Shown: positions 2,227 to 21,166 of the stretch, piece after piece
How positions within the stretch are numbered: the first letter of the stretch is position 1
Layout: each line of letters begins with the position of its first letter
Assembly: GCA_021498095.1 (NCBI GenBank)
Contig: JAIZWK010000001.1
Span: forward strand, 3,060,001-3,092,000
Origin: Candidatus Harpocratesius repetitus
Lineage (GTDB): Archaea; Asgardarchaeota; Lokiarchaeia; Sigyniarchaeales; Promethearchaeaceae
DNA length: 32,000 nucleotides
Direction: 5' to 3'
Notes under the pieces: generated by a model
Seen by the model: the letters and a program-made list of their open reading frames with translations, nothing else
Told to the model about the DNA's origin: nothing
The model's database searches: none
Program-made: the position numbers and the translations under genes

Positions 2227-4986
2227 ATGATCAAGCAAGCAAAAATTTTTGTAAACAGAAGTATATTTATATTTTTTTTGAGTATTTTGATATGGATGAT
2301 AATGAACAGAAAAAATCAGTTCATTCTGAGGCGTATTTTCTTGGGATTTTTTACTTTTTTAATTTTATATTCGAGTCTAGCATATATAAGTGAAAAAAGT
2401 GTTGTCTGCCCCTCAGATTACTCAAGAAATTCCTTAATAAAGAAAGAAATAGAATTTCCTTATCATTTACCACTAAAGATTTCAAATATAAGCCCTAATT
2501 TTATAGGTACATCCGTTTTTAATAGAAATAAAAAAGAATCAAGCGCATTTATGAATTTTGTAGAATCTAATACTAAAAATCAAAGTTTATCAATACGTGT
2601 AGGATATTATGAGAATTCTCCAAAAATTTATAAAGATAAAGAAAAAGGAATAACAGGCTTTTTCCCAGATTTATTAACATACATTGCATCACAAGAAAAT
2701 TGGAATATTATTTATGTAGAAGGATCTTGGAGTGAAGGTTTGGCTCGATTAAACTCAAGTGAGATCGACATTATGCCTGATGTAGGATATTCAGCAGAAC
2801 GAGACAAAATATATGATTTTAATAATATTTCTGCGATTACAAGCTGGGCTAGAATTTATACACTAGAAAAATCAGATATTGAGTCAATAATTGATTTAGA
2901 GCAAAAACGAATTGCCGTAATGCGTGATGATATTGATTATATAGGACCAATGGGCATCAAGCAGTTAACAAATGATTATTCGATTAATTGTACCTATATT
3001 GAGTTTTCTAATTATACTGAAGTATTTGAAGCCATTGAAAAAAAATCCGTAGATGCAGGGGTAATAAATGAACTATATGGAAACAGAAATGGTTATCGCT
3101 ATGCTGTGACAAAAACGCAAATTGTTTTTAGTCCTGTAAACTTTCATTTTGGATTTCCAAAAAATGCTACATTAAATCAAATTTTAATCAATAAAATCGA
3201 CTATTGGTTAAATAAATTGAAAAATGATCCACATTCATTTTATTATGAGAAATACCAAGAATATTTTGCCGAAATACCTCCAAAATCTGTGACGTTTCCG
3301 TATTGGATTCTTTATATTGCTTTAGGATTAAGTGGAGCGGTAATCTTTTTCGGGGGAACAACCATTTTTCTACGTTATCAAGTGTCTAAACGGACGAAAG
3401 AATTACATGAAAGTGAAACACGATTTCGATCTGTAATCGATTCGATGAAAGAATGGATTTGGGAAATTGACAAGAATGGAATATTTATATATGTCGGGCC
3501 ACAGATTTTCGATGTTTTAGGTTACCATCATGATGAAATTTTAGGAAAACCATTTTCATTTCTTCTTCCTAAAAAAATCAATAAAAATACAGAAGAAATA
3601 AATAATAATGATGAAGATGAGAGGTTATATTCATCAGATTCATTAATTGAAATGCTGTATGCTGGTTCTAAACCAAAATCAATTAATAATTTAGAGCATA
3701 TAAAAATCCATAAAAATGGTCAACGTCGAATTGTAGAATCAACAATTATCCCGTTATATGACAGACGTAAAAATTTCATAGGATTTCGTGGAATTGATCG
3801 CGATATCACAGAATTAAGAAAAACACAAGAATTTTTTCTTCAATCTCAAAAAATGAAAGCAATTGGACAATTAGCTGCAGGTATCGCTCATGAATTTAAC
3901 AATATCATGACAATAATTTTGGGTTTTACAAGCTTATTAAAAGATGATATTTCTAAGAAAACTCATGATGAATATATCCATGAAATATCTCTTGCTGGAA
4001 ACCAAGCAGCAGCATTAACAAAACAATTATTATCGTTTAGTAAAAAATATTCAAAATCAACAATCTCCATTGATATCAATGAAATCATCAAATCTATGGA
4101 GTTAATGATCAAAAAATTAGTTGGAGAAAAGATATTAATAATAATTAAATATCAGGAAAATATTTCTCAATTTTTAGGAGAAGTCCAAAAAATTCAACAA
4201 ATAATATTAAATCTGGTTATTAATGCCCGAGATGCAATGCCGAATGGAGGAATTTTATCCATTGAAAGTAGCGAAATTACTAAAAATAAAGAAAAAGTGG
4301 CATTAAATCCAAAATATGAGAAGTATATAAAAATTAATATTACAGATACAGGAAAAGGAATGTCGAAAGAGCAATTAACTCATATTTTTGAACCCTTCTA
4401 TACAACCAAGCCAAAAGGCAAAGGAACCGGCTTAGGAATGTATATTGTGTATGGTATTGTCCAACAATTTAATGGAACAATAGATATTTGTTCTAAAATT
4501 GGTAAAGGGACTAGGATTTCTTTATATTTTCCTTCCATCAATCAGAAAACAAACAAAATCATTACTACTCATCAAGAACTAAAAGATATTTCTGGAAAAG
4601 AGAGAATTCTATTAGTTGAAGATGATCCAAAATTATGTTCTTTAATTGAGAAAATTCTATTAGATTTTGGATATCAAGTAAGGAGCTTCATTCGTCCTCG
4701 AGATGCACTACAAGTATTTGAGTCATATCAAGAGAATTCAACAAATCATGAGGTTCAATTTGATCTAATTATTACAGATATTGTTATGCCTGAATTAAGT
4801 GGAAATGAAATGATCGACTTAATTTATAAAAAGTTTACTTATATCCCAGTAATTTATATCTCCGGATATTCAAAACACTCAAAATTTATTCAATCTATAT
4901 TAAATGATGGAACACATTTTCTCAAGAAGCCATTTACTCCTTATGAAATTGGTGCGAAAATTCGACAAGTCTTAGATAATAATTGA
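2227..4986 (+). CDS. Membrane hybrid sensor histidine kinase: TM, extracellular solute-binding (family 3-like) domain, TM, PAS/PAC, HisKA, HATPase_c, receiver
   Basis: SBP-like IRVGYYENSP...GFFPDLL...SWSEGLARL; TM YWILYIALGLSGAVIFFGG; PAS IWEIDKNG...LGYHHDEILGK; H-box AGIAHEFNN; N-box NLVINARDAM; G1 DTGKGM; F FEPFYTTK; G2 GTGLGM; receiver LLVEDD, TDIVMP, KKPF. The true start may be a later Met (MNRKNQF). Confidence 0.93.
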   Translation: MIKQAKIFVNRSIFIFFLSILIWMIMNRKNQFILRRIFLGFFTFLILYSSLAYISEKSVVCPSDYSRNSLIKKEIEFPYHLPLKISNISPNFIGTSVFNRNKKESSAFMNFVESNTKNQSLSIRVGYYENSPKIYKDKEKGITGFFPDLLTYIASQENWNIIYVEGSWSEGLARLNSSEIDIMPDVGYSAERDKIYDFNNISAITSWARIYTLEKSDIESIIDLEQKRIAVMRDDIDYIGPMGIKQLTNDYSINCTYIEFSNYTEVFEAIEKKSVDAGVINELYGNRNGYRYAVTKTQIVFSPVNFHFGFPKNATLNQILINKIDYWLNKLKNDPHSFYYEKYQEYFAEIPPKSVTFPYWILYIALGLSGAVIFFGGTTIFLRYQVSKRTKELHESETRFRSVIDSMKEWIWEIDKNGIFIYVGPQIFDVLGYHHDEILGKPFSFLLPKKINKNTEEINNNDEDERLYSSDSLIEMLYAGSKPKSINNLEHIKIHKNGQRRIVESTIIPLYDRRKNFIGFRGIDRDITELRKTQEFFLQSQKMKAIGQLAAGIAHEFNNIMTIILGFTSLLKDDISKKTHDEYIHEISLAGNQAAALTKQLLSFSKKYSKSTISIDINEIIKSMELMIKKLVGEKILIIIKYQENISQFLGEVQKIQQIILNLVINARDAMPNGGILSIESSEITKNKEKVALNPKYEKYIKINITDTGKGMSKEQLTHIFEPFYTTKPKGKGTGLGMYIVYGIVQQFNGTIDICSKIGKGTRISLYFPSINQKTNKIITTHQELKDISGKERILLVEDDPKLCSLIEKILLDFGYQVRSFIRPRDALQVFESYQENSTNHEVQFDLIITDIVMPELSGNEMIDLIYKKFTYIPVIYISGYSKHSKFIQSILNDGTHFLKKPFTPYEIGAKIRQVLDNN

Positions 4987-5033: not shown

Positions 5034-5573
5034 TTAGTTAGTTTTGAAATAATTATGGAATCGAATGAATACAACAACAGGAAGTAATAATTGAAAGATT
5101 CCTTTCCCATATTGGGTAATTGAATAAGAAACTCGAATTGGTGAACCTTCATGGACCATTCTTTGAATAATTTTGTGCTTTTCGAGTTCTTTTAACCTCT
5201 TTGATAAAGTACCAGGGTTAATATAAGGAAGATTTTCCTTAATTTGATTAAAATATTGAAAAGACATTCCATTTAAGAGAAAAATTATATCTAGTGTATA
5301 TTTTCCTTGAAGAATTTCTAATCCAGGCCGTAATTCTTTGAGTTCATCTTGTAAATGAGTATTTTCATGATCATGATTATCAGATATATGCAATTGCATG
5401 CATGAATTGACCGCTTTTTGCATTTCAAGCATTTTTACGATCATTGGACGCCATGTTGCAAACTTTGGAGGAATTTTTTCTAAGATTTGATGGAATTCTT
5501 CAATCGTACTTTTCTCATCTTGATTTTGAGGTGATTTTTGTTTGCTCTCTTTTTTAGACATTTTGCTTACCAT
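5034..5573 (-). CDS. HxlR-family winged-helix transcriptional regulator with long N-terminal extension
   Basis: ILQGKYTLDIIFLL...FNQIKENLPYINPGTLSKRLKELEKHKIIQR...PIRVSYSITQYGK is the HxlR pattern. Confidence 0.88.
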   Translation of the reverse strand: MVSKMSKKESKQKSPQNQDEKSTIEEFHQILEKIPPKFATWRPMIVKMLEMQKAVNSCMQLHISDNHDHENTHLQDELKELRPGLEILQGKYTLDIIFLLNGMSFQYFNQIKENLPYINPGTLSKRLKELEKHKIIQRMVHEGSPIRVSYSITQYGKGIFQLLLPVVVFIRFHNYFKTN

Positions 5574-8582: not shown

Positions 8583-8819
8583 TTATTTTACACATTCAAA
8601 ATAGAGAAACCATCCTTCATCTTCATCATTTTCTTCTTTTCCTAAGAATTTATGCTTTGTTTTGGCTAAATCTCTTGGAACACTTTCTACTGCGGGTTCA
8701 TAGTCAAGAATTACTTTTAATACTTGCCCAGGACTCATTTTAAGCAGTTTTTTCTTCGTTTTCAAAGCAGGCATGGGACAAACCAAGCCACATACATCCA
8801 GTTCTTCATCATAATCCAT
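8583..8819 (-). CDS. tusA: TusA-family sulfur carrier (copy 1, in the hdr operon)
   Basis: LDVCGLVCPMP (CPxP motif), PGQVLKVILDYEPAVESVP; Shine-Dalgarno-like GAGGT upstream. Confidence 0.9.
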   Translation of the reverse strand: MDYDEELDVCGLVCPMPALKTKKKLLKMSPGQVLKVILDYEPAVESVPRDLAKTKHKFLGKEENDEDEGWFLYFECVK

Positions 8820-8863
8820 TTTACGTTTACCTCATATTCGATTAAAATATTTTATTTATGTAT

Positions 8864-9292
8864 TTATGTTGTTTTTAAAAAAATAGGATCTCTTTGGTTT
8901 GGAAGAATTTGAAATTCAACTTGATTTAATTCAACTAACCGCAGAGCTTCAAATCTCACTTTTATTGTGGATAAACCTAATAGGTCTGCTATTTTTGGAA
9001 TGGTGCTCTTAGGGTGTTCTTCAATAACTTTTAACACTTTTTCACGTGTGTTTAAAAAGTTTTCAGGATCTTTCTTTTTCCCTCGACGCACCATAGGACA
9101 GCTATTATAACAATTTCCACAAGCTAGACCAATTGTAGTCATAATACATTTCCCTTTTAGAAGTGGGGTTTTTTTTTTCTTCTCATTGACTGTTTCACTC
9201 ATTTCAATGTGTTTACATGATTTTGCACAAATCCCACAACCAATGCATTGATTTGTATCAATAATTTTAGTTTTTAAAAGTTCAAAGCTCAT
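8864..9292 (-). CDS. 2x[4Fe-4S] ferredoxin-like domain fused to a C-terminal winged-helix (HTH) domain
   Basis: CIGCGICAKSC and C...CGNCYNSCP; the N-terminus resembles the ferredoxin module of FrhB/FpoF-like proteins. C-terminal REKVLKVIEEHPKSTIPKIADLLGLSTIKVRFEALRLVELNQV is wHTH-like. Start overlaps the preceding gene by 11 nt. Confidence 0.7.
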   Translation of the reverse strand: MSFELLKTKIIDTNQCIGCGICAKSCKHIEMSETVNEKKKKTPLLKGKCIMTTIGLACGNCYNSCPMVRRGKKKDPENFLNTREKVLKVIEEHPKSTIPKIADLLGLSTIKVRFEALRLVELNQVEFQILPNQRDPIFLKTT

Positions 9293-10574
9293 AATTTTTA
9301 CTCTCCCAATTAGTTATTATACCTCGTGAATCGAGGGTAAATGTTACATTCTTTGAAGAAGAAGTATATGTTCCTTCTTGAATTGGTATAGGATGAGCCC
9401 GAAAATTATCAAAATTCTTAAAAGAATCCAATTTAATTTTCATGCCTCCAAAGTAGAGATTAGACAAATTCATGTTACCTGCTAATTTTCTGATATTTTC
9501 CGTGCTCTCAGCATACAAATTTGGATCCATATTTTCACATGCCAACTTGTATTTCTTTTCCAATTCTAATAGTTGTTCCCTTATTGTCTTTAACTCATTA
9601 TCTAATTCCAATTTAATACCCTTTTCATAAGCATCAAGGATATCAATAGTCATTGAAATGAAACTTTTTCCACCCATCATTCCTGTAATAAGCGGCAATT
9701 CTTCAATCGGTCGTCCAACCATAATATCTGCAATAATATTTCCAGAAGATGGTATTTTACCAGGTGGAATCGGTGAATTTGCCAAAGTAAATCGGAAAAA
9801 GGTACCAACCACATCAGAATAGGCACTTGAAATTTCATCTTCTTCATCAGCTAGCTTATCGGTAGCACCTTTTGAAGATGCTTCAGTGGCAACATCCATT
9901 TGACCCATGAGGGTTCCCATCATTCCAAGCATACGAATTGATGAATCGTCAATAAAGGGATTGCAACCTCGACATGGAGTTCCAAAATCAATACAACGCT
10001 CTTGACAATTATTTGCAATATATCCTGAACATGTATATCCAACATCATTAAAACATTGTTTTTCATCAAGCTCTTGAAGATCGATTTGATGGACAATTTC
10101 TTCTAAGAAGGAACAAGTTGATTCTCTTGGACATTTTTCACATAGTTTTTCAGATTGAAATTGATTATAATCTTTCAATAATGCTAAAAGATGATCACCA
10201 GAGGCTAAGCATCCCCTTATTTCTTGATCTACAGAAATAATTTTAGATATTGGAAAAATTTCTATCCCTTTTTGATATGCTAATCCAAAAATTCCTCCGT
10301 CAGTCGCACAAGATCCAAAAGTAAAAACTTGATTAGCAATTTTTCGAATTTCTTGTAAACAATGAAGATTTTCTGAAGTAGCATATCCTGAGAAAATCGC
10401 AATATCTATTGATGAAGGAAGATTATATTCATCTGTACACCAAATTAACTTCACATCTGTTTCTTCTTCATAATCTTTAACATTACGAACGATTAATTCT
10501 GGATTCCCAATCAGATTAATAATTTCGTTGCGACATTTTGTGCATCCATTTAATTGAAATATTCCAATTTTCAT
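9282..10574 (-). CDS. mvhG: MvhG-like hydrogenase small subunit (3 Fe-S clusters) fused to a degenerate MvhA-like fragment lacking Ni ligands
   Basis: GCTKC, GSCATDGGIFGL, RGC, LCEKCPR, CFNDVGYTC, CQERC, PCRGC and DVVGTFFRFTL align with MvhG (aa 1-272). aa 273-430 contain GRPIEELPLI, as in MvhA just before the L1 motif, but no CxxC. Confidence 0.8.
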   Translation of the reverse strand: MKIGIFQLNGCTKCRNEIINLIGNPELIVRNVKDYEEETDVKLIWCTDEYNLPSSIDIAIFSGYATSENLHCLQEIRKIANQVFTFGSCATDGGIFGLAYQKGIEIFPISKIISVDQEIRGCLASGDHLLALLKDYNQFQSEKLCEKCPRESTCSFLEEIVHQIDLQELDEKQCFNDVGYTCSGYIANNCQERCIDFGTPCRGCNPFIDDSSIRMLGMMGTLMGQMDVATEASSKGATDKLADEEDEISSAYSDVVGTFFRFTLANSPIPPGKIPSSGNIIADIMVGRPIEELPLITGMMGGKSFISMTIDILDAYEKGIKLELDNELKTIREQLLELEKKYKLACENMDPNLYAESTENIRKLAGNMNLSNLYFGGMKIKLDSFKNFDNFRAHPIPIQEGTYTSSSKNVTFTLDSRGIITNWESKNYEL

Positions 10575-10990
10575 TGCTTCAAAACTCCTTTATTTTCAAT
10601 AGCTTGTTTTAATTTTTCCAAAATATCTTCGAAATCACCTACAGCAGTTTCTCCTTCAGCGGCTCGAGCCGTATATTGGTTTAAAATTAACTCGCTGTAA
10701 CCCATTTCTTTGATAAATTTTTTGAGCAATTTCACACGGCGCAAAGAGACCAAATTACCATTGAAGAAATGGCAGGCACCAAAACAACAACCAATTACAG
10801 CAACGGAATCTGCTCCATTTTTATATGCATCCATGATTTGAATAGGGCCAACTTGGCCTGCACATTTTACTCGAATTATCTTAATTGAAGTATCATATTG
10901 CATTCGAGCAACTCCAGCAGTATTTGCTGCCCCTTGACCACATTCAGCACACATAAAGCAAACAACATTCTTTTTTGTTTTTGTTTCCAT
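10571..10990 (-). CDS. mvhD: MvhD/FlpD [2Fe-2S] adaptor subunit (Cys form)
   Basis: FMCAEC...ANTAGVARMQY...IIRVKCAG...GADSVAVIGCCFGACHF.NGN; stop overlaps the next start (ATGA). Confidence 0.92.
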   Translation of the reverse strand: METKTKKNVVCFMCAECGQGAANTAGVARMQYDTSIKIIRVKCAGQVGPIQIMDAYKNGADSVAVIGCCFGACHFFNGNLVSLRRVKLLKKFIKEMGYSELILNQYTARAAEGETAVGDFEDILEKLKQAIENKGVLKQ

Positions 10991-10998
10991 TATAATAT

Positions 10999-12999
10999 TT
11001 ACACCCCTTTTTCTAAGATTGGATGCGCCACGGCTTCAATTTCATCTCTTAGTTGTTCTTCTCTATAATTTATCACTTGAATCGCATGTGTTGGACAAGC
11101 AGGCATGCAAATTCCACAGCCTTTGCACCCAACTTCATTTACAACAGGTTTACCATTTTCCCATAAAATTGCTGAAGGTGAACATGCAGTGATGCATGCA
11201 CGACATTTTGTACAAAGATCATAGTCAATTTTTGCAATTATCATCTCTTTTTCTATATATCCTTTTACCAAAGAAGAAACTGCTCCAACAGCAGCTGCAC
11301 TTCCTTGGGCTACTGATTGGGTTATATCTTTTGGTCCTTGAATTGCACCAGCAATAAATATTCCATCTCGACTTGATCTTGTTGGATCCATTTTAATATG
11401 GAATTCTTTAATAAACCCTTCTTTCCCACGAAGCAATTGCAGTCGTGAACCTAATAAACCAACACCTTTTGGGGCAACCATTGCTGCTGAAAGAATTACC
11501 AAATCTGCATGTAATTCCATAGGTTCTGCCATAAAAGTATCTTCAACGTAGACTTTCAAACAATCATTTTCCGGATCTGCCTCAATTTCAGATGGTCTTC
11601 CACGAATGAAGAGTACCCCTTTCTTTTGACATGCTTTATAATATTCTTCATAATATAAACCAGGTGTTCGTATATCAATATAACAAATATATACGTTTGA
11701 ATCTGGATAAGTATCTTTTATAATACCAGCATTTTTAATTGCAAACATGCAACAAACACCTGTACAATATTCATTGCCAACTAATTCATTCCTTGATCCA
11801 ACACATTGAATTATGACTACATTTTTTGGAATCCTTCCATCAGATGGTCTCAATAGTTGACCTCCAGTAAGAGATGTTGGACCCATCATTCTTTCAAATT
11901 GGAGTTGAGTTATTATATTCTCATAACCCGGTATTTTGTAATGATAAGCTTCTATTTCACTGGGATCATATTCTTCATATCCTGTAGCAACAATAATTGA
12001 TCCGACTTTGATTTTAGTTTTACTCTTCTTAAGTGAAAAATCTATTGCATTTACGGGACAAGTCTCAACGCAACGCCCACAATCAATACAATTCTTTCGA
12101 TCAACTACAAATGTTGAAGGAATTGCTTGAGGATATAATTTATAAATTGCCTTTCTAATTCCCATCCCAGAATCCCATTCTGCAGGTAATTCAACCGGAC
12201 ATACACTTGCACATTCTCCACATGAAGTACAATTAGACTTTACATATCGCGGTTTGGTTGTGATTGTGACTGTAAAATTTCCTATACTTCCATCTACAGA
12301 ACTAACTATTGAATTTGTAAATAATGTCACATTTTCATGAGTTGCTACTGCATTCGTAAGTGGTGAAATACTACATTGAGGGCATTCATTTGTTGGAAAT
12401 GTTTTATTTAATTGAGTCATATGTCCACCAATACTTGATTCTCGTTCAACTAAATATACCGGAATTCCTGAATCAGCTGTATCTCGAGCGGCTCTAAGTC
12501 CAGCAATGCCTCCACCAATGACCAATACTGCTTTGGTAATTTGAATTTTCTGTGTTCTAACTTCTTCTAATGTTCGAGCCCGATTAACTCCTGCTTTAAC
12601 TAGTTGTTTTGCTTTTTCAGTGGCTTCAACATGATCTTTTTGATGAACCCAACTATCATGTTCTCGAATATTAACTTGTTGATGAAGATGTTTATTTAAT
12701 CCGACTTCAGAAATTGCACGAGCAAAAGTAGGTCCGTGCTGCGTTTTAGAACAAGAAGCCACCACAGTTCTGGTTAAATTATATTCTTTCACTGCATTTT
12801 TTATTAATTCAATACCTTGTTTAGAGCACATAAACATATTATCTGTAGAAAATTCAACATTTGGAAGAGTTTTTGCATATTCAGCAACTGCTTTTACATC
12901 GACAACATCAGCAATATTATGCCCACAGTGACAAACGAAAACTCCAATACGTTCATTACTTTTCGGATTGTTTTTTTTGTCTTTCTCTTTTTCGACCAT
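10999..12999 (-). CDS. hdrA: Heterodisulfide reductase subunit A (FAD, Fe-S), methanogen-type, Cys form
   Basis: IGVFVCHCG, NIREHDSWVH, VIGGGIAG, KTFPTNECPQC, two inserted CxxCxxCxxxCP, QFERM, CVGSR...YCTGVCCMFAIKNA, GPKDI, C-terminal 2x[4Fe-4S]. Confidence 0.97.
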   Translation of the reverse strand: MVEKEKDKKNNPKSNERIGVFVCHCGHNIADVVDVKAVAEYAKTLPNVEFSTDNMFMCSKQGIELIKNAVKEYNLTRTVVASCSKTQHGPTFARAISEVGLNKHLHQQVNIREHDSWVHQKDHVEATEKAKQLVKAGVNRARTLEEVRTQKIQITKAVLVIGGGIAGLRAARDTADSGIPVYLVERESSIGGHMTQLNKTFPTNECPQCSISPLTNAVATHENVTLFTNSIVSSVDGSIGNFTVTITTKPRYVKSNCTSCGECASVCPVELPAEWDSGMGIRKAIYKLYPQAIPSTFVVDRKNCIDCGRCVETCPVNAIDFSLKKSKTKIKVGSIIVATGYEEYDPSEIEAYHYKIPGYENIITQLQFERMMGPTSLTGGQLLRPSDGRIPKNVVIIQCVGSRNELVGNEYCTGVCCMFAIKNAGIIKDTYPDSNVYICYIDIRTPGLYYEEYYKACQKKGVLFIRGRPSEIEADPENDCLKVYVEDTFMAEPMELHADLVILSAAMVAPKGVGLLGSRLQLLRGKEGFIKEFHIKMDPTRSSRDGIFIAGAIQGPKDITQSVAQGSAAAVGAVSSLVKGYIEKEMIIAKIDYDLCTKCRACITACSPSAILWENGKPVVNEVGCKGCGICMPACPTHAIQVINYREEQLRDEIEAVAHPILEKGV

Positions 13000-13001
13000 T
13001 T

Positions 13002-13955
13002 TTACCCAGCCCCTTCAATAGATTTTTCCTTTATCGATACTTTCTCCATAGGTTCCTTTAATTCTTTAAATTGATAATCTTTTCCATGGGCTTGATATTG
13101 TAAGCCTATTTTCTCCATATCCATTCCCATACACCATGCAGTTAATTGAGACATATGTATTACAGGAATATCAAAATTAGTTCCATAAATTTCGTTTACA
13201 GTAGTTTGGCCACCATCAAATTGTAATTGGCAAAATGGACATGTATCAAAAATAAAATCCGGATTAGCTGCCTGCATATGACCTAATTTTTCTTTCAAAA
13301 TCTTCATAGATGTATTTTTATCAAAGCTAAGAACACCTCCACCTGCACCACAACATGTTAATTTTTGAGCAAAATCAACAGATTTAACACCTAAGGCTTC
13401 GACATATTCCTCCAGAAAGGTTGGAATTTCAGGTGAAGCAAGTTGGCGAATTCTAGAAGGTTTTAAAAGATGGCATCCATAATGAACAGCAGCTCTTGCC
13501 TCTGCTTTTCGAACAATGTATTTCTGAATTTCAGTGGGTCCTACTTCAAAACCGAGAATTTCGGCAATGTGGCGGACTCGAATTGTTCCTTTCCATTGAT
13601 AATCACCCATTTCTTTTAATTTTTCATTAACTTTTGCAGCCATCTCTGGATCAGATTTTAGATGCTTATTTACATCAATTAAAGTTCCAAAGCAACCATT
13701 ACATACGGTTAAAATGTCTGCGTCGTTCTTTTCAGCAATCGCAATATTGCGTGCAGCTGCAACCATCCAATCACTTTTATCAAAAGAACGAAAAACCCCA
13801 GGAGCTGGACAACATGTTGCACGTTCCATTTCCATAAGCGTAAAACCTAATTTTTTCATAACAAACCGGGTTGCAGATTCAATTTGCGGGTAACGATTAG
13901 GCATAATGCATCCTAAAAAGAATGAAAATGTATTTTCTTTTACCATTTCTTTCAC
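13002..13955 (-). CDS. hdrB: Heterodisulfide reductase subunit B (two CCG domains)
   Basis: FLGCIMPNRYP, TCCPAPG, VCNGCFGTL, HYGCHLLKP, TCCGAGGG, CPFCQLQFD. Confidence 0.97.
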   Translation of the reverse strand: MKEMVKENTFSFFLGCIMPNRYPQIESATRFVMKKLGFTLMEMERATCCPAPGVFRSFDKSDWMVAAARNIAIAEKNDADILTVCNGCFGTLIDVNKHLKSDPEMAAKVNEKLKEMGDYQWKGTIRVRHIAEILGFEVGPTEIQKYIVRKAEARAAVHYGCHLLKPSRIRQLASPEIPTFLEEYVEALGVKSVDFAQKLTCCGAGGGVLSFDKNTSMKILKEKLGHMQAANPDFIFDTCPFCQLQFDGGQTTVNEIYGTNFDIPVIHMSQLTAWCMGMDMEKIGLQYQAHGKDYQFKELKEPMEKVSIKEKSIEGAG

Positions 13956-14070
13956 TTTATTTAAAATTTTTATTTATTTTTTAGCAAACTATATATTTTT
14001 TTTGTCAATTTCGTCTTAATATTTAAAAATTTATTTACTAAATGCTTTTTTTCTTTAATTATTAAGATTT

Positions 14071-14661
14071 TTAACTTAATTTTTCAAAACCATCCAAATT
14101 TTTTCTGGAATTTGCTTTTCTTTCTTTATATTCCTTACCTCTTTCAACAACTCTGAAAAGTTTATGGAAAGGGATAATTTCAGAATTTTCTTCATCGCGA
14201 TATTTATATAATGTTGGTGGAATCGGATCCAATCCTAAGGCTTCTCTTTGCCTTATAATTTTATCATTTATCGGAACCGCATGCCCTGTTGATCGCAGAT
14301 AACCAACAACTGCGGTATGATTAGGACTCATATTCCCAATTTCACTGGCATAATTTCTTAAATCTATTATTACGTCAGTTGGACGAACATCACGTGGACA
14401 ACGTTCATAGCAATTGTAACATGTAGTACAAAGCCAAATGTCTGGATCTTCTAAGACAGATAGATCGCCCAAAGCAGCTTTTCTAACAATTTGCCGTGTA
14501 CGGATAGCAGTCCAACGCCCACTCTCACAAGAAGCTGTACAAGTGCCACATTGAATACAAGAAAAAATATTACTCCTCCGAGCAATATTTTCAAAAAATT
14601 GAGGGTCAAAATCCTCTAATTTTTTATATTTTCGCTTAATTGATATTTCACTTTCAGTCAT
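14071..14661 (-). CDS. hdrC: Heterodisulfide reductase subunit C
   Basis: CIQCGTCTASC and WLCTTCYNCYERCPRDV; TGHAVP. Confidence 0.95.
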   Translation of the reverse strand: MTESEISIKRKYKKLEDFDPQFFENIARRSNIFSCIQCGTCTASCESGRWTAIRTRQIVRKAALGDLSVLEDPDIWLCTTCYNCYERCPRDVRPTDVIIDLRNYASEIGNMSPNHTAVVGYLRSTGHAVPINDKIIRQREALGLDPIPPTLYKYRDEENSEIIPFHKLFRVVERGKEYKERKANSRKNLDGFEKLS

Positions 14662-14885
14662 TATTCATAACTCCAAAATGGATTTTTTACAAAGTATTTC
14701 ATAGACTCCTTTAATTCCTTTTGATTTTCATAAGTTTCTTCTTTTAATTTTCATGTGCTGATCTTGATTTTAAAATACTAAATTTATTCTTTACATTTTT
14801 ATCTACATAATTCTTTTATCATTTTATTTTAAAAGCAATTCTGAATCCTTTTTTAAAACAAATGAATATAAGAATTCAATAATTT

Positions 14886-14970
14886 GCATCATTCGTGTCG
14901 GTCTATGGATAAAAAGCCGTCGAATGTACAATGTGTTATATTAATCTGAATGCAACTTATAAATATTTGT
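14886..14970 (-). promoter_or_regulatory. hdr operon promoter: BRE/TATA plus TGTACATT-N29-AATG element (copy 1)
   Basis: Minus strand: ACAAATA-TTTATAA (TATA 14963-14957), TGTACATT at 14930-14923, AATGATGC from 14893. The 16-mer ATTGTACATTCGACGG is identical to the one at 16238-16223. Confidence 0.7.
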
Positions 14971-15007
14971 TCCACTAATCTAAAAAAAAAGTGACAAAAT
15001 TTCTTTA

Positions 15008-15553
15008 TCAAGGAATTGATATCCTTATATCTTCTTTAACACATTGCAACACAACTTGTGTGTGAATTTCTTCGATGCCTGGAATAAATTTCACTTTTTC
15101 CAATAATTGAATTTGATCCTCTTTTTCAATACATTTTGCCATACAAAATATTGAATAATTTCCAGAAATCTGGTATATTGAATTAATTTTCTCAATTTCA
15201 ATTAATTTATTAAAAATATCTTGAATTGGAATAACATTGTTTACCCGAATTGAGAGTAACAACATTTCTTTATATCCAATCTTGCAACAATCAATTAATG
15301 CAGAATAAGCTTTAATTACACCAGTTTCAGTCAATTTATCTACATGATTTTTTATTGTTGAAACAGATGAATTCAATTTTTTGGCAATTTTTCGAAATGA
15401 AGCTTTTCCATCTTCTTGTAAAATTTGAAGGATCTTTTTATCTATATCACTCAATTCAATTTCTTTATGCATTAGTGATGAATTTTTTATATTGTTTGAG
15501 TTAACTGATTTTTGGACATTATTCAAAATCGGTTCACGAGGCATAATTTTCAC
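15008..15553 (-). CDS. Lrp/AsnC-family transcriptional regulator with five Cys
   Basis: LSDIDKKILQILQEDGKASFRKIAKKLNSSVSTIKNHVDKLTETGVI (HTH) and a RAM-like domain (YQISGNYSIF). The true start may be M28. Confidence 0.9.
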   Translation of the reverse strand: MKIMPREPILNNVQKSVNSNNIKNSSLMHKEIELSDIDKKILQILQEDGKASFRKIAKKLNSSVSTIKNHVDKLTETGVIKAYSALIDCCKIGYKEMLLLSIRVNNVIPIQDIFNKLIEIEKINSIYQISGNYSIFCMAKCIEKEDQIQLLEKVKFIPGIEEIHTQVVLQCVKEDIRISIP

Positions 15554-15563
15554 GAGAAATTAG

Positions 15564-15596
15564 ATTTGATTCATATTTGATTCATATTTGATTCAT
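15564..15596. repeat. Perfect 11-bp tandem repeat x3 (ATTTGATTCAT) just upstream of the Lrp gene
   Basis: Exact copies at 15564-15574, 15575-15585 and 15586-15596; a minus-strand TATA (TTTATATA) lies at 15633-15626. Confidence 0.9.
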
Positions 15597-15674
15597 TACT
15601 AAATAGAAAAATATAAAATGAAGTATATATAAAAAATAACTACATCTAAAACTGCTTAAATATTTCTGTTTTAT

Positions 15675-16094
15675 CTATAAAGAAATTACTTGATCTGCAT
15701 CATCAACCATTTCGATAAATTTTGCGGCACCGATAGGTTCTTCGCAGAAATCATGAATCTGTTCTTTCTTTACTCCCATTAAATCCATTGTCATTGAACA
15801 AGGATAGAGTTTAATATTACCTTCTTCAATTCCATCTTTAACCATTTCCCACATATCTTCATATCCAAAGGATTTCAATTTCTTTTTGAACATCATTGCA
15901 GCCATCCCCTTCATAGGGAAGGGCATACCTGCTACTTTTGGTTTAAAATTCTTTTTTAACAAGTTTATACCCCAGAAAGTGAAGAAAAAATTCATTTTTG
16001 TTTCCATTGCGGCACCAGTTGTGCCAAGGATTACCATCATTCCAAATTTCTCAAAACTTTGTTCGGATACGATAAAATTCATAACTTTTGGCAT
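15675..16094 (-). CDS. DsrE2-type (DrsE_2-like) sulfur carrier / peroxiredoxin-like family protein
   Basis: FFFTFWGINLLKK and IKLYPCSMTMDLMGV...GAAKFIE are characteristic of this family. Confidence 0.88.
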   Translation of the reverse strand: MPKVMNFIVSEQSFEKFGMMVILGTTGAAMETKMNFFFTFWGINLLKKNFKPKVAGMPFPMKGMAAMMFKKKLKSFGYEDMWEMVKDGIEEGNIKLYPCSMTMDLMGVKKEQIHDFCEEPIGAAKFIEMVDDADQVISL

Positions 16095-16191
16095 AATTTC
16101 TCACGTTTTTTTATTTTTAGTTATTTTGAATTTGTTGTTCATTTACATGTCATACTTAAAAAAACAAATGTAACAAAAGAAGAGTAGACAA

Positions 16192-16274
16192 GTAACATTT
16201 GTAACAGTTTCGATAGAAAAAACCGTCGAATGTACAATATAAGTATTATTTGCATTCGCCATATAAATCTTTGT
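16192..16274 (-). promoter_or_regulatory. dsrE2 promoter: BRE/TATA plus TGTACATT-N29-AATG element (copy 2)
   Basis: Minus strand: ACAAAGA-TTTATAT (TATA 16267-16261), TGTACATT at 16236-16229, AATGTTAC from 16199. Confidence 0.7.
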
Positions 16275-16412
16275 GATAAAATAGAGAGAATTAAGTGAAA
16301 ATAAAATCAAAAGGACTTTCATTTATCTTTAGGCCCACTTATCTGATTAAATGAAATAGTTAATTTACATTAATTACCTCAATTAATATCATCGAAATAA
16401 AAATGATGTGAA

Positions 16413-17234
16413 ATGGAACGAATACAATTCGCAGAAGAACAAATTCGTCGCTATTCTCGACATATTATATTGCAAGATATAGGATCAACTGGCGTGAAAA
16501 AATTAATTGGATCCACTATAGGCATAGTTGGCGCTGGAGGATTAGGATGTCCAGTAGTTCAAATGTTAGCCGCTGCTGGAATCGGACATCTTAAAATTAT
16601 TGATGGTGATAATGTAGAGCTTTCTAACCTTCCCCGACAACCATTGCATTTCACAACTGATGTTGGACGAAAAAAAGTTGATAGTATTTTAGAAAAAATC
16701 ATTGCTTTAAATTCAGAGATTCAAGTTGAAATTTTTCCAGAATATTTAACAAAAGCAAATGCAATTAAATTCTTGCAAGGTTGTGATTATGTAGTTGATG
16801 CCAGTGATAATTTTGCTACGAAATTTTTGATAAATGATGTTTGCATTCATTTAGGGATACCATTTAATATCGCTGGAGTAGTACAATGGATGGGGCAAAT
16901 TTTATCGGTTGATCCAGGAAAAACAACTTGTTATCGGTGCATTTTTCATACAATCTCTTCTGGGGATGAGTCTATGTCTTGTTCTGCTGCAGGGTTTATC
17001 AACACAGTTCCTAGTTTTGCAGGAATATTGCAAGCAAATGAAGCAATAAAATCAATTGTCGGATTACATCAAAAATTCACTAACGGATTATTTACATTTG
17101 ATTTAAGAGAAAATTCTTTTGATTTCATTCCAATTAAACAAAATCCAGAATGCGCGGCTTGCTCTCATCCAGAAATTCCTTTTTATAAAACAGAAAATTA
17201 TAATGTTGACTTAGATCAATGTAATATTCAGTAA
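16413..17234 (+). CDS. ThiF/MoeB/UbaA-type E1-like adenylyltransferase, no rhodanese domain
   Basis: RYSRHIIL, VGAGGLGC, IDGDNVELSNLPRQ, DASDNFATKFLIND, Zn motifs CYRC and CAAC, candidate catalytic Cys in SCSAAG. Confidence 0.93.
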   Translation: MERIQFAEEQIRRYSRHIILQDIGSTGVKKLIGSTIGIVGAGGLGCPVVQMLAAAGIGHLKIIDGDNVELSNLPRQPLHFTTDVGRKKVDSILEKIIALNSEIQVEIFPEYLTKANAIKFLQGCDYVVDASDNFATKFLINDVCIHLGIPFNIAGVVQWMGQILSVDPGKTTCYRCIFHTISSGDESMSCSAAGFINTVPSFAGILQANEAIKSIVGLHQKFTNGLFTFDLRENSFDFIPIKQNPECAACSHPEIPFYKTENYNVDLDQCNIQ

Positions 17235-17354
17235 TCGATAAAAAGAAAGAAAAATGGGATTCAATATATAAAAAAAAAGTATCTCAAAAATGATTAGATT
17301 AAAAGAATGAATTGAAATTGATGAAAATGCTTAAACTTATCAACACTTGATATA

Positions 17355-17633
17355 TCAAATACGTTCAATCCAAATTGTTTTCACTCCTCTTTTTTCAACG
17401 GAGTGAAGTATTTTTCCTAACTTTTGCTTGGTTACATTTTGTGGAACATTTGTAAATGCAGATGGAAAATCTAAAATCACTCTCAGAATTTCACCCGATT
17501 CCATTTCTTCTAATGCTACTTTAGTGTACACGAATGTCATAGGACACTGCACTCCAATTAGGTCCAACTCTTTACCTTTTTGCATCCATTTAATATTTGA
17601 GTCACTCATATGCATCTTGATCCATCTTTGCAT
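17355..17633 (-). CDS. TusA-family sulfur carrier (copy 2, variant CPMT motif)
   Basis: LDLIGVQCPMTFVYTKVALEEMESGEILRVILD; the true start is probably an internal Met. Confidence 0.85.
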   Translation of the reverse strand: MQRWIKMHMSDSNIKWMQKGKELDLIGVQCPMTFVYTKVALEEMESGEILRVILDFPSAFTNVPQNVTKQKLGKILHSVEKRGVKTIWIERI

Positions 17634-17770
17634 ATAATTTCATTTAATCCTTTGGATTGTTAAAAATCATATAAGAATCTTCATTTCATGAAAATTTATC
17701 AATCAATTTAAAGAAGGAATGGAAAAATCTGCATTTTTAAACACGAACCTTTTACAATATAGCGAGAGCC

Positions 17771-17778
17771 TTTATATG
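17771..17778 (+). promoter_or_regulatory. TATA box for iscS, probably a leaderless transcript
   Basis: TTTATATG begins 30 nt before the ATG at 17801. Confidence 0.5.
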
Positions 17779-17800
17779 TTGGATCTTTTTTTTCCTAAAT

Positions 17801-18988
17801 ATGGAAAAAGATATAGAAAACACCTATATATATTTGGATCATGCAGCCACAACACCTTTAGATCCAATAGTTTTTTCTGAAATGATTCCCTACTTACAAA
17901 ATTACTATGGAAATGCATCTTCAATGCATGGTATTGGCAGATTCTCTAGAAAAGCCATTGAATCTGCCCGCCAACGAATCGCTCAATGTATTGGGGCACA
18001 ACCTGAAGAAATTATATTTACAGGCAGTGGAACAGAAGCAGACAATATTGCCATTATTGGAACTGCTATGAAAATGAAGCGATATGGAAAGCATGTGATT
18101 ACAACAACAATCGAACATCCCGCTGTGCGGAATTGTTTTCGAAAATTGCAGATTGAAGGTTTTGAAGTATCTTATCTTTCTGTTGATAGTGAAGGACGCA
18201 TTTCTGTAGATGAATTTAAGAGACTAATTCGAAAAGATACCATTTTAGTATCTATCATGTATGCAAATAATGAAATCGGAAGTATTCAGCCAATTCAAGA
18301 CATTGCTGAAATAACCAACCAACACGGTATTATTTTTCACACAGATGCGGTTCAAGCTTTTGGAAAATTACCAATAAATGTTCAAAATGAAAAATTTGAT
18401 TTATTATCTGCTTCTGCTCATAAAATTTACGGCCCTAAAGGAATTGGAATGTTGTACATTCGAAATAGAGGTAGAAATCCAAAAAGGGGTGTTTATATTA
18501 TTCCAATTACTTATGGTGGAGGTCAAGAATTTGGATTTCGTTCAGCTACCGAAAATGTGGCAAATATCATTGGATTTGCGAAAGCAGTTGAATTATGTTA
18601 TGAAAATATGGATAAAATTGAAGCTCGATTGAAAAACATGCGCGATGACTTAATAAAATGGATTCTAACTAATATACCAGGAAGTTTTATCAATGGAGGA
18701 TTAAATCACAGACTACCAAATAATATTAATGTTGGATTTGAAGGAATTCAGGGAACAGACTTGCTGAAAAAATTAGATCAAGAGAAAATTGCTGTATCTG
18801 TCGGTTCTGCTTGCCATTCGAAATCTCAAGATGTCTCTTTTGTGCTCACTGCAATAGGATTATCTGAAGAGTTGGCAGCCTCATCCATACGATTAACTTT
18901 AGGAAAAAATACCACAAATGCTCAGCTTGAATATGTTAAAAATACTTTAAAACGTTGTGTGGAAGAATTACGCTTGAAAAATAAATAA
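17801..18988 (+). CDS. iscS: Class I cysteine desulfurase (IscS/NifS-type)
   Basis: YLDHAATTP, GNASSMH, EHPAV, NNEIGSIQP, HTDAVQ, PLP Lys in SAHKIYGPKG, catalytic Cys in SVGSACHS. Confidence 0.96.
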   Translation: MEKDIENTYIYLDHAATTPLDPIVFSEMIPYLQNYYGNASSMHGIGRFSRKAIESARQRIAQCIGAQPEEIIFTGSGTEADNIAIIGTAMKMKRYGKHVITTTIEHPAVRNCFRKLQIEGFEVSYLSVDSEGRISVDEFKRLIRKDTILVSIMYANNEIGSIQPIQDIAEITNQHGIIFHTDAVQAFGKLPINVQNEKFDLLSASAHKIYGPKGIGMLYIRNRGRNPKRGVYIIPITYGGGQEFGFRSATENVANIIGFAKAVELCYENMDKIEARLKNMRDDLIKWILTNIPGSFINGGLNHRLPNNINVGFEGIQGTDLLKKLDQEKIAVSVGSACHSKSQDVSFVLTAIGLSEELAASSIRLTLGKNTTNAQLEYVKNTLKRCVEELRLKNK

Positions 18989-19124
18989 TAACTCAATCAT
19001 TCTTCATCAATATGTGAAAAATTAAGTTCGTTTTGAAAAATTTTTCTGATAGAAATTAAAAATACATCAAAAAGAACATTGAAAAAAATCAACTTATATC
19101 AATAGAATCTTTGCACTTGGTCGA

Positions 19125-19433
19125 TTATAACCAAGACATCAATTTTTCTGCAGCTTCAATTAAATCGATTAAAGTTCCATAGGAAATAGGCTTGATAAAT
19201 TCAAATATTTTTTCTTTTTTTATCCCTCGAGCTTCAAGATCTTCAAGTAAAACGCTAATGGTCCAACCTTGTTTATCAAAATCAATAAATTCTGATTCGC
19301 CTTTGATTGCGCCAAATACTCCATCTTGCATTAAAACTAAATGACAATCTTCCCAATTTTTAGTGAACATTAACAAATCTTGAATTTTTTGATGCTCTAC
19401 TCCAGATTGTCCATATAATATTAAGTGTTTCAT
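19125..19433 (-). CDS. dsrH: DsrH/TusB-family subunit
   Basis: LVLMQDGVFGAI...VLLEDLEARGI...ISYGTLIDLIE; GGAGG ribosome-binding site; third gene of the dsrE-F-H run. Confidence 0.85.
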   Translation of the reverse strand: MKHLILYGQSGVEHQKIQDLLMFTKNWEDCHLVLMQDGVFGAIKGESEFIDFDKQGWTISVLLEDLEARGIKKEKIFEFIKPISYGTLIDLIEAAEKLMSWL

Positions 19434-19454
19434 ACATTCATTCCTCCATTTTTT

Positions 19455-19820
19455 TTACATATGGAACACCATCGAATATTCATCGATGATTCCGGGAAGG
19501 TCGTCTCGATTTACTACAGTCAACGCTTCATAATCAATAAGATCTTCTTCTGAAAATCCAAATTGGAAAAGGTCTTCACGAACAACGACAATTGGAAGTT
19601 CAGTTAAATCGGCCATCTCTATACCTTCGTCCATAGCATCCATATTAACTCTTTCTGGATTTAGATTATTTACTAGGTTAGTCACACCAGCTTGATAAAA
19701 TACTAATTTGCAATCTATATCTTCCCCTAAGCCCAAATATCCTGCACCTAATCTTATTGCTTCAACACCGGAATTTGTACCAAAGGGACCATTCTTGCAT
19801 AAAATTAAAACAGATTCCAC
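19455..19820 (-). CDS. dsrF: DsrF/TusC-family subunit
   Basis: ILCKNGPFGTNSGVEAIRLGAG, LVFYQAGV, VVREDL..FG; GTG start with GGAGG upstream. Confidence 0.85.
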   Translation of the reverse strand: MESVLILCKNGPFGTNSGVEAIRLGAGYLGLGEDIDCKLVFYQAGVTNLVNNLNPERVNMDAMDEGIEMADLTELPIVVVREDLFQFGFSEEDLIDYEALTVVNRDDLPGIIDEYSMVFHM

Positions 19821-19860
19821 TTTTTTGCCTCCATACTATTTAATGAAATACTATCATGCA

Positions 19861-20214
19861 TTAAGCATGATTACCAAAAACAATCACCTTATCTGCTGTT
19901 GCAGTTAAATTTGATAATTCACCTAAACCAGTTATATCTGCTCCATCAATTGCATTCTCTTTAAAAATTGCAAAATTATCTGCCCATGTTTGGCATGCTA
20001 TGATTGGAACACCTAACTTTTCTAATTCTGAGGGAATATTACGAGTATTTTTCCCTAAATGAGCACCTTTTTGAATATTAAGAACACCACTTCCAAAAAA
20101 GAAAATGCCCAAAATTTCGTGGTTTTTTTCTTTTGCAGCATGTACAATATTCAAGAGAGTATAAACAGGTTGAAATTTTAGGAATTCAGTCATTACAACA
20201 AAAGCTAGCTTCAT
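19861..20214 (-). CDS. dsrE: DsrE/TusD-family subunit carrying the conserved sulfur-accepting Cys
   Basis: HEILGIFFFGSGVLN, IIACQTWA, GLGELSNLTATADKVIVF. The start is placed at M18 of the 19861-20265 ORF (GGAG upstream); the extra N-terminus overlaps a T-rich tract. Confidence 0.85.
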   Translation of the reverse strand: MKLAFVVMTEFLKFQPVYTLLNIVHAAKEKNHEILGIFFFGSGVLNIQKGAHLGKNTRNIPSELEKLGVPIIACQTWADNFAIFKENAIDGADITGLGELSNLTATADKVIVFGNHA

Positions 20215-20261
20215 TTGTTCATTCTCCATCAATATGATTGAAAAAAAAAGAAAAAATAAAA

Positions 20262-20486
20262 TCAATCTTTTTTAATTAAAAACGTAAAAACACCATTATC
20301 TTCCTTCATCTCTACCAGGGTGCATCCTGTCTTTTTTAATAACGGAGGTATATCGACTTTTGCACCTGCATCATCAGCCACAAACTCGAAAGTTTGTCCT
20401 GAAGTCATTTTTTTGATTATTTTTTTTGTTTTCAGGACGGGCATGGGACATTTGAGTCCTTTAAAATCTTCTGTAAAATCTGCCAT
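20262..20486 (-). CDS. tusA: TusA-family sulfur carrier (copy 3, heading the dsrEFH run)
   Basis: EDFKGLKCPMPVLKTKK...SGQTFEFVADDAGAKVDIP; the start is placed at M13 of the 20262-20522 ORF. Confidence 0.9.
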   Translation of the reverse strand: MADFTEDFKGLKCPMPVLKTKKIIKKMTSGQTFEFVADDAGAKVDIPPLLKKTGCTLVEMKEDNGVFTFLIKKD

Positions 20487-20546
20487 ATAATTCACGTCAT
20501 ATAAGATTGTATAAATCGACAATCGTCACCGATTCTCGAATAAAAG

Positions 20547-20630
20547 TGCACATTTGTTTTAGTCTTAAAATAAAAGACCAAAAAATGTACAGTTAGTAAT
20601 TTATTTATACAGATCTTAATAAATCTTTTT
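20547..20630 (-). promoter_or_regulatory. tusA-dsrEFH promoter: BRE/TATA plus TGTACATT-N29-AATG element (copy 3)
   Basis: Minus strand: AAAAAGA-TTTATTAA (TATA 20623-20616), TGTACATT at 20591-20584, AATGTGCA at 20554-20547. Confidence 0.7.
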
Positions 20631-20641
20631 TCATTCTTTTT

Positions 20642-21166
20642 TCACTTTTTACTGAAATATTCAGCATAATATTGAATATATCCAGCATAAGCCATCAATG
20701 CTTCTGGGCTTTTAAAAACAATTTGAAAAGATTGAGTATTAATTGGCAAAAAATGAATATCAGAATGAATATAACGATAATTTTCTTGAAGTAATTCCAT
20801 CATTAAGTTTGCATTATTATTAGGAAATTCAATTAAAAAAATCAATCCTGATTTTGGAAAAAATGCAATTATATCAGATAATTTGAAGAAAATATTTTCT
20901 TGAAAATTTATTTGTTCTGGTTGAATTTTTCTGAACAAATTACTTCGTTCTTGATATGTTTTAATAATATTTTGCTCACTTGTTCCAAAAATGATGAAAC
21001 CTTTATCGAAAAACTCTAAAAATAGAGGAGATCTTGCTTTTTGTAAATTTTCGTTTAAGAATCTTTCGAAACGTTGTATATACGCAATTATTTCCCGTTG
21101 AGTGGTGCTCACCATTAAAAACATAATTTGGGAACTTGCGTCTGCCATACTCTTTTGACCGATCAA
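20642..21166 (-). CDS. Hypothetical protein
   Basis: 174-aa ORF filling the gap between pncB and tusA, on the same strand; no recognised motif. Confidence 0.65.
   Translation of the reverse strand: MIGQKSMADASSQIMFLMVSTTQREIIAYIQRFERFLNENLQKARSPLFLEFFDKGFIIFGTSEQNIIKTYQERSNLFRKIQPEQINFQENIFFKLSDIIAFFPKSGLIFLIEFPNNNANLMMELLQENYRYIHSDIHFLPINTQSFQIVFKSPEALMAYAGYIQYYAEYFSKK

Follow-up and report, generated by a model that had tools for sequence, protein, structure and literature searches.

Three promoters of the Asgard (Lokiarchaeia) archaeon Candidatus Harpocratesius repetitus, those of hdrC, dsrE2 and tusA-dsrEFH, share an element of fixed geometry that was found nowhere else in its genome. 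They lie on the minus strand of the window analysed here, a stretch of 32,000 nucleotides (G000:C1:3060001-3092000) from a genome, G000, that consists of a single contig of 4.36 Mb with 31% G+C. All copies of the element fold as long sense-strand hairpins and, judging from sequence comparison, we lean towards a 5'-terminal RNA stem-loop as the most likely mechanism. To our knowledge, gene regulation in Asgard archaea is almost uncharted, and for archaea as a whole the list of structured cis-regulatory RNAs is very short.

An element confined to three promoters

Each of the three promoters reads (A/C)AAA(T/G)A-TTTAT, a B recognition element (BRE) and TATA box, followed by TGTACATT starting at 14930, 16236 and 20591, which is 33, 31 and 32 nt downstream from the first T in TTTAT (Table 1). 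Exactly 29 nt after TGTACATT come AATGATGC in the hdrC copy (copy 1), AATGTTAC in the dsrE2 copy (copy 2) and AATGTGCA in the tusA copy (copy 3). This arrangement had been claimed in an earlier note made from the DNA letters alone and reads exactly as given there; the 16-mer said to be identical in copies 1 and 2 is indeed common to both (ATTGTACATTCGACGG).

On its own, TGTACATT occurs 113 times on the two strands of the genome. For the composite TGTACATT-N29-AATG the genome has three occurrences, where 0.72 would be expected, and they are precisely the sites at these promoters; that three of them should fall on one strand within 5.7 kb has a joint probability of about 5e-8. A covariance model built for the element (R1) was run on the whole genome and on relatives. 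In the genome it recovered copies 1, 2 and 3 at 51, 60 and 64 bits, and the next match scored 23 bits (E = 3). The earlier note had left to a genome scan whether the motif is common; it is not, as there are three copies and all are at this locus. The R1 scan found no copy in the inserted cassette (16413..18988) that separates tusA-dsrEFH from dsrE2.

Among 60 relatives, R1 found two further copies only, both on the syntenic contig (C110) of the congener G002, and no element in the 59 other relatives. Orthologues of all three copies are found on L111, a metagenome contig extending the G002 locus (tusA 122-174, dsrE2 4250-4302, hdrC 5488-5540); of two Logan contigs, L216 has the element at the dsrE2 and hdrC promoters and L219 at the tusA promoter. 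The first T of TTTAT is 31-34 nt from the element in all copies of G000, G002/L111, L216 and L219. Orthologous promoters, the other place to which the earlier note had pointed, thus carry the element with the same geometry, and the GAACAAAnATTTAnA block of the hdrC promoter is also kept at the orthologous promoters in L111 and L216. An exact search of the 60 relatives for TGTACATT-N27-31-AATG gave matches at the level of a reversed-pattern control, that is, of chance. A degenerate 17-base pattern was tried on metagenomes and set aside: of its more than 120 matches only L111 was genuine by R1, the others lacking the inner stem.

Outside this group, R1 matches in the family members L187-L191 and L218 were weak (E above 0.2), and G005, G010 and L218 have TGATCA-type palindromes near the start site instead of the element. 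A hairpin at a comparable position is found in three further cases. In L220, where TusA is 86% identical and the cluster contiguous, a 45-nt hairpin lies at offset 33 from a TATA of the same type, with arms AGAACAAT/CATTTGTTCT; in L221 (TusA 81% identical) a hairpin at offset ~30 has ACATATG arms, a both-sided change within the heptamer; and in L188 (the G010 cluster) there is a hairpin at the same offset, which at 37 nt and -8.9 kcal/mol is weaker and is therefore treated as an uncertain case.

The TGATCA palindromes have a distribution of their own. The G000 genome has 32 occurrences of TGATCA-N0-4-TGATCA, where roughly 2-3 would be expected. They often come as pairs separated by 0.5-1.9 kb, such as G000:C1:1753136 and 1754047, 2352692 and 2353604, or 3286595 and 3287102, and the TGATCAATTGATCA palindrome is found again in other genera, at tusA or hdrC promoters in G005 and L218. 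A common regulator may bind these repeats, or they may be the ends of mobile elements.

A sense-strand hairpin and its compensatory changes

In nearly every copy the 29-nt spacer can pair with itself, a feature that, like the third box described below, the earlier note does not mention; its sequence differs between copies. Shuffling the spacer with the arms held fixed gave p = 0.002-0.16 per copy and a Fisher combined value of 4e-6, which is optimistic because the copies are related. When nine sequences were aligned, 81.7% of cells proved to be paired, whereas sliding the partners left 28-46%; both sides have changed in 10 of 17 pairs, and the covariation score of 0.361 was reached by none of 500 shuffles (0.227 in shuffles). 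Single comparisons show the same exchange of partners: between G000 and G002 at tusA, G-C becomes A-U and C-G becomes U-A; between G002 and L216 at dsrE2, C-G becomes U-A and A-U becomes G-C; and between G002 and L219 at tusA, U-A becomes A-U. Within the window, copies 1 and 2 have identical 5' halves and different 3' halves, and each 3' half still pairs.

The pairing is also specific to one strand. The minimum free energy (MFE) of the sense strand is below that of the antisense strand in 10 of 10 hairpins, and G-U pairs number 14 in the sense and four in the antisense orientation (binomial P = 0.015). Compensatory changes and sense-strand specificity, as looked for in a structured leader RNA, are therefore both present. 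Copy 3 folds at -16.6 kcal/mol (z = -4.5, with 0 of 200 shuffles equally stable), copy 1 at -13.6 (z = -2.8) and copy 2 at -9.9. When the segment from +29 to +81 was folded at 576 BRE/TATA-like sites of the genome, the mean MFE was -4.5 (standard deviation 2.9), and among these sites copies 3 and 1 rank second and about fifth; such hairpins are not a general feature of promoters in this genome. The hairpin stays the dominant structure when whole leaders are folded. Rfam gave no match, either at gathering thresholds over the whole window or at E up to 1 over 14600-20700, and literature searches on the TusA/DsrE-Hdr link and on Asgard promoters and transcription starts, none of them aimed at the element, yielded no account of it.

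From these observations we propose a module in which a BRE/TATA would be followed, about 30 nt on, by a 45-nt sequence that stands at the very start of the mRNA and adopts a stem-loop fold. Its outer stem would be GUACAUU/AAUGURC, its inner stem variable in sequence and still paired, and its apex U-rich, with transcription beginning just upstream of the 5' arm. The hairpin would act as RNA, either as a site for a trans-acting regulator that reads the conserved base of the stem or as a determinant of 5'-end stability. The ACATTYG boxes, which make up the two arms (A and B) and recur as a third box A' at +62, may in addition be read on DNA by the Lrp-type regulator of the cluster.

Transcribed stem-loop, DNA operator and other readings

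Several points weigh against a transcribed stem-loop. One of its main weaknesses is the narrow phylogenetic sample: the copies have one common ancestor and only about four or five lineages were sampled, so that the statistics overstate independence. The 31-34 nt from the conserved BRE/TATA to the element are the sole ground for placing both arms in the transcript, and AT-rich, TATA-like runs lie between the proposed TATA box and the element, such as the conserved TGTATAAAT upstream of tusA; were such a run the real TATA box, the start of transcription would fall within the 5' arm. Quasi-palindromes in DNA that are corrected by template switching can look compensated without any function of the RNA. 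Between the hairpin and the start codons there are 60-270 nt, and no ribosome-binding site is sequestered; the cluster has no evident RNA-binding candidate and does encode a DNA-binding regulator. The third box A', and the heptamers found upstream of the TATA box in relatives, are left unexplained by a hairpin alone. As to TGTATAAAT itself, this 9-mer (20602-20610, minus strand; ~92-100 in L111) is identical in G000 and G002 and one base off in L219. Its role could be that of a proximal promoter element or of an alternative TATA box, and so it bears on where transcription starts.

The main rival, which refines the model of the earlier note and which we rate distinctly lower than the stem-loop but take seriously, is that the boxes are a DNA operator array. 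An oligomer of the cluster's Lrp/FFRP regulator would contact them on wrapped DNA and block initiation or promoter escape, and the RNA hairpin would be incidental. The boxes (ACATTYG) are found at about +5 (A), +37 (B, inverted) and +67 (A'), overlapping the promoter from about +5 to +70, and from one centre to the next there are 32 and 30 bp, or about three helical turns. Octamers of the Lrp family contact the DNA wrapped around them with a matching spacing, and a position at the predicted transcription start suits a repressor. Exactly 62 nt after A, nine copies from the genus show a perfect ACATTTG in five cases, one mismatch in two and no box in two; the L111 orthologue of copy 1 has ACATTTG at this offset. 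In an unbiased count of 7-mers upstream of tusA in five genomes of other genera, ACATTTG was the rarest by background expectation among those present in at least four of the five (found 6 times, with 0.36 expected from the G000 background; Poisson P = 8e-5 on the loci's own background), although heptamer counts are noisy in AT-rich intergenic DNA and two of the five genomes come from one genus. Some boxes, in L190, L188, the lrp-hdrC spacer of L216 and L221, lie upstream of the likely TATA box and would therefore be DNA sites. A short palindrome, ACATT-N8-AATG(T/A), is seen near the tusA promoter in two relatives only, just after the hairpin in L220 (8947-8966) and just before the BRE/TATA in L221 (~8811-8828). 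The candidate regulator is a full-length FFRP whose closest solved structure is FL11/PH1519 (E = 2e-23); lrp is syntenic in nine of the 10 clusters compared, and the recognition helix of its product, SSVSxxKNHxDxL, hardly varies between genera. The archaeal Lrp/FFRP operators of FL11/PH1519 of Pyrococcus and Ss-LrpB of Sulfolobus are alike in having the gene of a full-length FFRP within the regulated cluster itself, and boxes that overlap the predicted transcription start and are phased by about three helical turns. Known FFRP boxes, however, are 13-15-bp palindromes with an AT-rich centre, read by one dimer, and no such box is present at the three promoters: here single 7-mers stand 30-32 bp apart, with an A-B spacer that is self-complementary and appears to evolve by compensation. 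With 29 nt between them, A and B (ACATT/AATGT) are not a dimer site, and single boxes are palindromic only over GTAC. Nor is a wider regulon in the genome indicated by either candidate motif, since ACATT-N8-AATGT (8 against about 21 expected) and GTACATTYG (49 on both strands against ~79, a hand estimate from base frequencies) are not enriched. What separates the two readings is that an operator needs no self-complementary spacer, no compensatory changes within it and no sense-strand G-U bias, nor the swapped arm sequence with which L220 keeps its hairpin, whereas a 5'-terminal RNA stem-loop accounts for all of these. A dual arrangement is plausible, in which the Lrp-type regulator would read the boxes on DNA and the hairpin, once transcribed, would be under RNA-level selection of its own.

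Three further accounts were considered. It is conceivable, though we think it improbable, that the stem-loop defines a post-transcriptional regulon, in which a sensor protein would read the stem base of a 5' hairpin on every persulfide-relay and Hdr transcript, the module having been duplicated when the operon broke up; the logic would be analogous to the eukaryotic circuit of iron-responsive element (IRE) and iron regulatory protein (IRP). An alternative-pairing attenuator appears very unlikely. In such a device B (CAAAUGU) would pair with either A or the downstream A', the B:A' pairing followed by a U-run terminating transcription early and a factor that stabilizes A:B giving read-through. 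A and A' are indeed the same heptamer in the same sense, both complementary to B, and B is the best-conserved box (seven of eight copies match ACATTYG as its reverse complement); T6-T7 follows A' in copy 2 and in the G002 dsrE2 copy, and G010 shows the same > < > layout built from a different repeat, AAGATCAAA. Yet a U-run follows A' in only about three of six copies, A' is absent from the G000 tusA and L216 dsrE2 copies, B:A' never appears in the minimum-free-energy fold of full leaders, and archaeal termination depends on U-tracts and not on hairpins. We give equally little credence to a neutral relic, a quasi-palindrome that was duplicated with the promoter and kept paired by template-switch repair. 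The common ancestry of all copies and the confinement of the element to one genus and a few relatives would fit it; the intergenic surroundings, however, have heavily diverged between G000 and G002 while arms, spacing, pairing and A' are kept, G-U pairs are tolerated on the sense strand only, and relatives with other arm sequences keep the position and size of the hairpin.

Three simpler candidates were rejected. The element is not the terminator of an upstream gene, as copy 2 has no co-oriented gene upstream (thiF is divergent) and a separate, conserved T9 tract precedes the hdrC promoter. For a leader peptide read from the AUG in box B, the frames agree neither in length nor in sequence, and that of the G002 dsrE2 copy ends after a single codon. 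A dispersed repeat of the repetitive extragenic palindrome (REP) or miniature inverted-repeat transposable element (MITE) type would likewise be an imperfect palindrome of 40-50 nt in several copies with its pairing kept; here there are three copies only, at a fixed distance from a promoter, each before a fragment of one ancestral operon, and no genome-wide spread.

Precedents for a 5'-terminal stem-loop come from other domains. Stabilizing 5' stem-loops are known from the bacterial ompA leader and protein-bound 5' hairpins from the eukaryotic IRE/IRP system; both resemble the element in placing a stable stem-loop at the 5' end of functionally linked mRNAs, with the base of the stem kept in sequence and the rest in structure, and both differ in having no sequence or Rfam relationship to it. 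We know of no archaeal precedent for a 5'-hairpin regulon. SurR of the Thermococcales is an ArsR-type, sulfur-responsive redox-switch regulator with the motif GTTn3AAC(n5GTT). Its regulon is alike in being archaeal and related to sulfur and hydrogen, and in sharing a promoter-proximal motif of three half-sites, while the candidate regulator here has invariant cysteines; it differs in the regulator family (ArsR-type, as against Lrp/FFRP), in an unrelated motif with much shorter sites and in the lack of hairpin-forming leaders. The cysteines of the Lrp-type regulator (a DCCK motif and C141) are invariant in ten orthologues from several genera, which suggests an effector domain that may sense thiols or persulfides.

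Locus history and probable common control

Features of the locus are listed in Table 1. The T-run after lrp, with the preceding TTGTCAC, is identical at 15 of 15 positions in an alignment of G000 with L111. Archaeal transcription is terminated by T-runs, and the tract is a putative terminator of the dsrE2-lrp unit; its conservation fits hdrC as a separate unit.

Table 1. Genes and sequence features of the locus, with window positions
Feature	Position	Strand	Unit	Source	Remarks
tusA	20262-20486	minus	unit 1 (19125..20486)	Pfam	
dsrE	19861-20265	minus	unit 1	Pfam	
dsrF-like	19455-19820	minus	unit 1	Pfam	
dsrH	19125-19433	minus	unit 1	Pfam	
class-V cysteine desulfurase	17801-18988	plus	inserted cassette (16413..18988)	Pfam	
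second tusA	17355-17633	minus	inserted cassette	Pfam	
thiF	16413-17234	plus	inserted cassette	Pfam	
dsrE2	15675-16094	minus	unit 2 (15008..16094)		
Lrp/FFRP-type regulator (lrp)	15008-15553	minus	unit 2		
hdrC	14071-14661	minus	unit 3 (8864..14661)	Pfam, NCBIfam	
hdrB	13002-13955	minus	unit 3	Pfam, NCBIfam	
hdrA	10999-12999	minus	unit 3	Pfam, NCBIfam	
mvhD	10571-10990	minus	unit 3	Pfam, NCBIfam	
MvhG-like protein	9282-10574	minus	unit 3	Pfam, NCBIfam	
ferredoxin-domain protein	8864-9292	minus	unit 3	Pfam, NCBIfam	
tusA-dsrEFH BRE/TATA	20616..20630	minus			AAAAAGA-TTTATTAA; first T of TTTAT 20623
hairpin copy 3, tusA leader	20547..20593	minus			~18 bp; inner stem GGTCTT/AAGACT; 7-nt U-rich loop
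dsrE2 BRE/TATA	16260..16275	minus			CACAAAGA-TTTATATG; first T of TTTAT 16267
hairpin copy 2, dsrE2 leader	16192..16238	minus			inner stem ACGGTTT/AAACTGT, including a G-U pair
third box A', copy 2	16158..16171	minus			ACATTTG, then T7 run; 62 nt after A; offsets 4253 / 4285 / 4315
T9 tract	14982..14990	minus			just past lrp stop codon
hdrC BRE/TATA	14956..14972	minus			GAACAAATA-TTTATAAG; first T of TTTAT 14963
hairpin copy 1, hdrC leader	14883..14932	minus			arms ATTGTACATTCG / CGAATGATGCAAAT; inner CGG/CCG stem
third box A', copy 1	14859..14865	minus			TCATTTG, one mismatch to ACATTTG; 62 nt after A

Two open reading frames (ORFs) adjoin these promoters. The hdrC leader, of ~270 nt, has a 13-codon upstream ORF (14661-14702, minus strand), preceded by AAAGGAG, whose UAA overlaps the annotated hdrC AUG (UAAUG); its conservation in L111 is not obvious. 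A 174-amino-acid ORF without a Pfam or NCBIfam match (20642-21166, minus strand) lies between the gene for NAPRTase and the tusA promoter. L219 has a 173-amino-acid ORF without a Pfam match in the same place upstream of tusA, and in G002, which has no such ORF, the NAPRTase gene directly precedes the tusA promoter.

We found that tusA-dsrE-dsrF-dsrH-dsrE2-lrp-hdrC-hdrB-hdrA-mvhD-MvhG-like forms one co-oriented cluster in five other genomes of the family and on three contigs. Only in the genus of G000 and G002 does a desulfurase/tusA/thiF cassette lie between dsrH and dsrE2, and the lrp-hdrC spacer is 350-470 nt long in this genus and 58-176 nt elsewhere; the cassette is not in the contiguous clusters of the sister genera compared (L187-L191, L218, L220 and L221). 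Another congener, G001, keeps the cassette (L052), and no DsrE2 or DsrE was found there with the queries used. The simplest reading of this gene order is that a single ancestral operon was split and its promoter-plus-leader module triplicated. The ancestral cluster, tusA-dsrEFH-dsrE2-lrp-hdrCBA-mvhD, would have had one leader, before tusA; the cassette would then have split it in this genus, and the module would have been copied before dsrE2 and before hdrC. With the module before all three fragments, the same control would have been kept, and the split pieces probably stay under common control, a sound inference given that the element is specific, unique in the genome and kept at orthologous promoters.

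This bears on two proposals of the earlier note. The view that the reductase and the sulfur carriers act as one system is backed by the shared element, and predicted co-regulation of the two is well supported; as independent evidence for one system, the contiguous cluster of sister genera outweighs the motif. The proposal that one regulator, the Lrp or the ferredoxin-winged helix-turn-helix protein, co-controls them holds as far as common control goes, while a DNA operator for such a repressor is not established.

A link between TusA/DsrE and Hdr had been put forward only as a hypothesis for another Asgard archaeon (preprint 10.1101/2025.07.22.663070). For this family, synteny confirms that the TusA/DsrE sulfur carriers belong to one functional unit with the HdrABC-MvhD complex. 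With a genome-unique module that shows clear covariation, a traceable split and triplication, and an adjoining cysteine-bearing Lrp-type regulator, the locus offers a compact, testable case.

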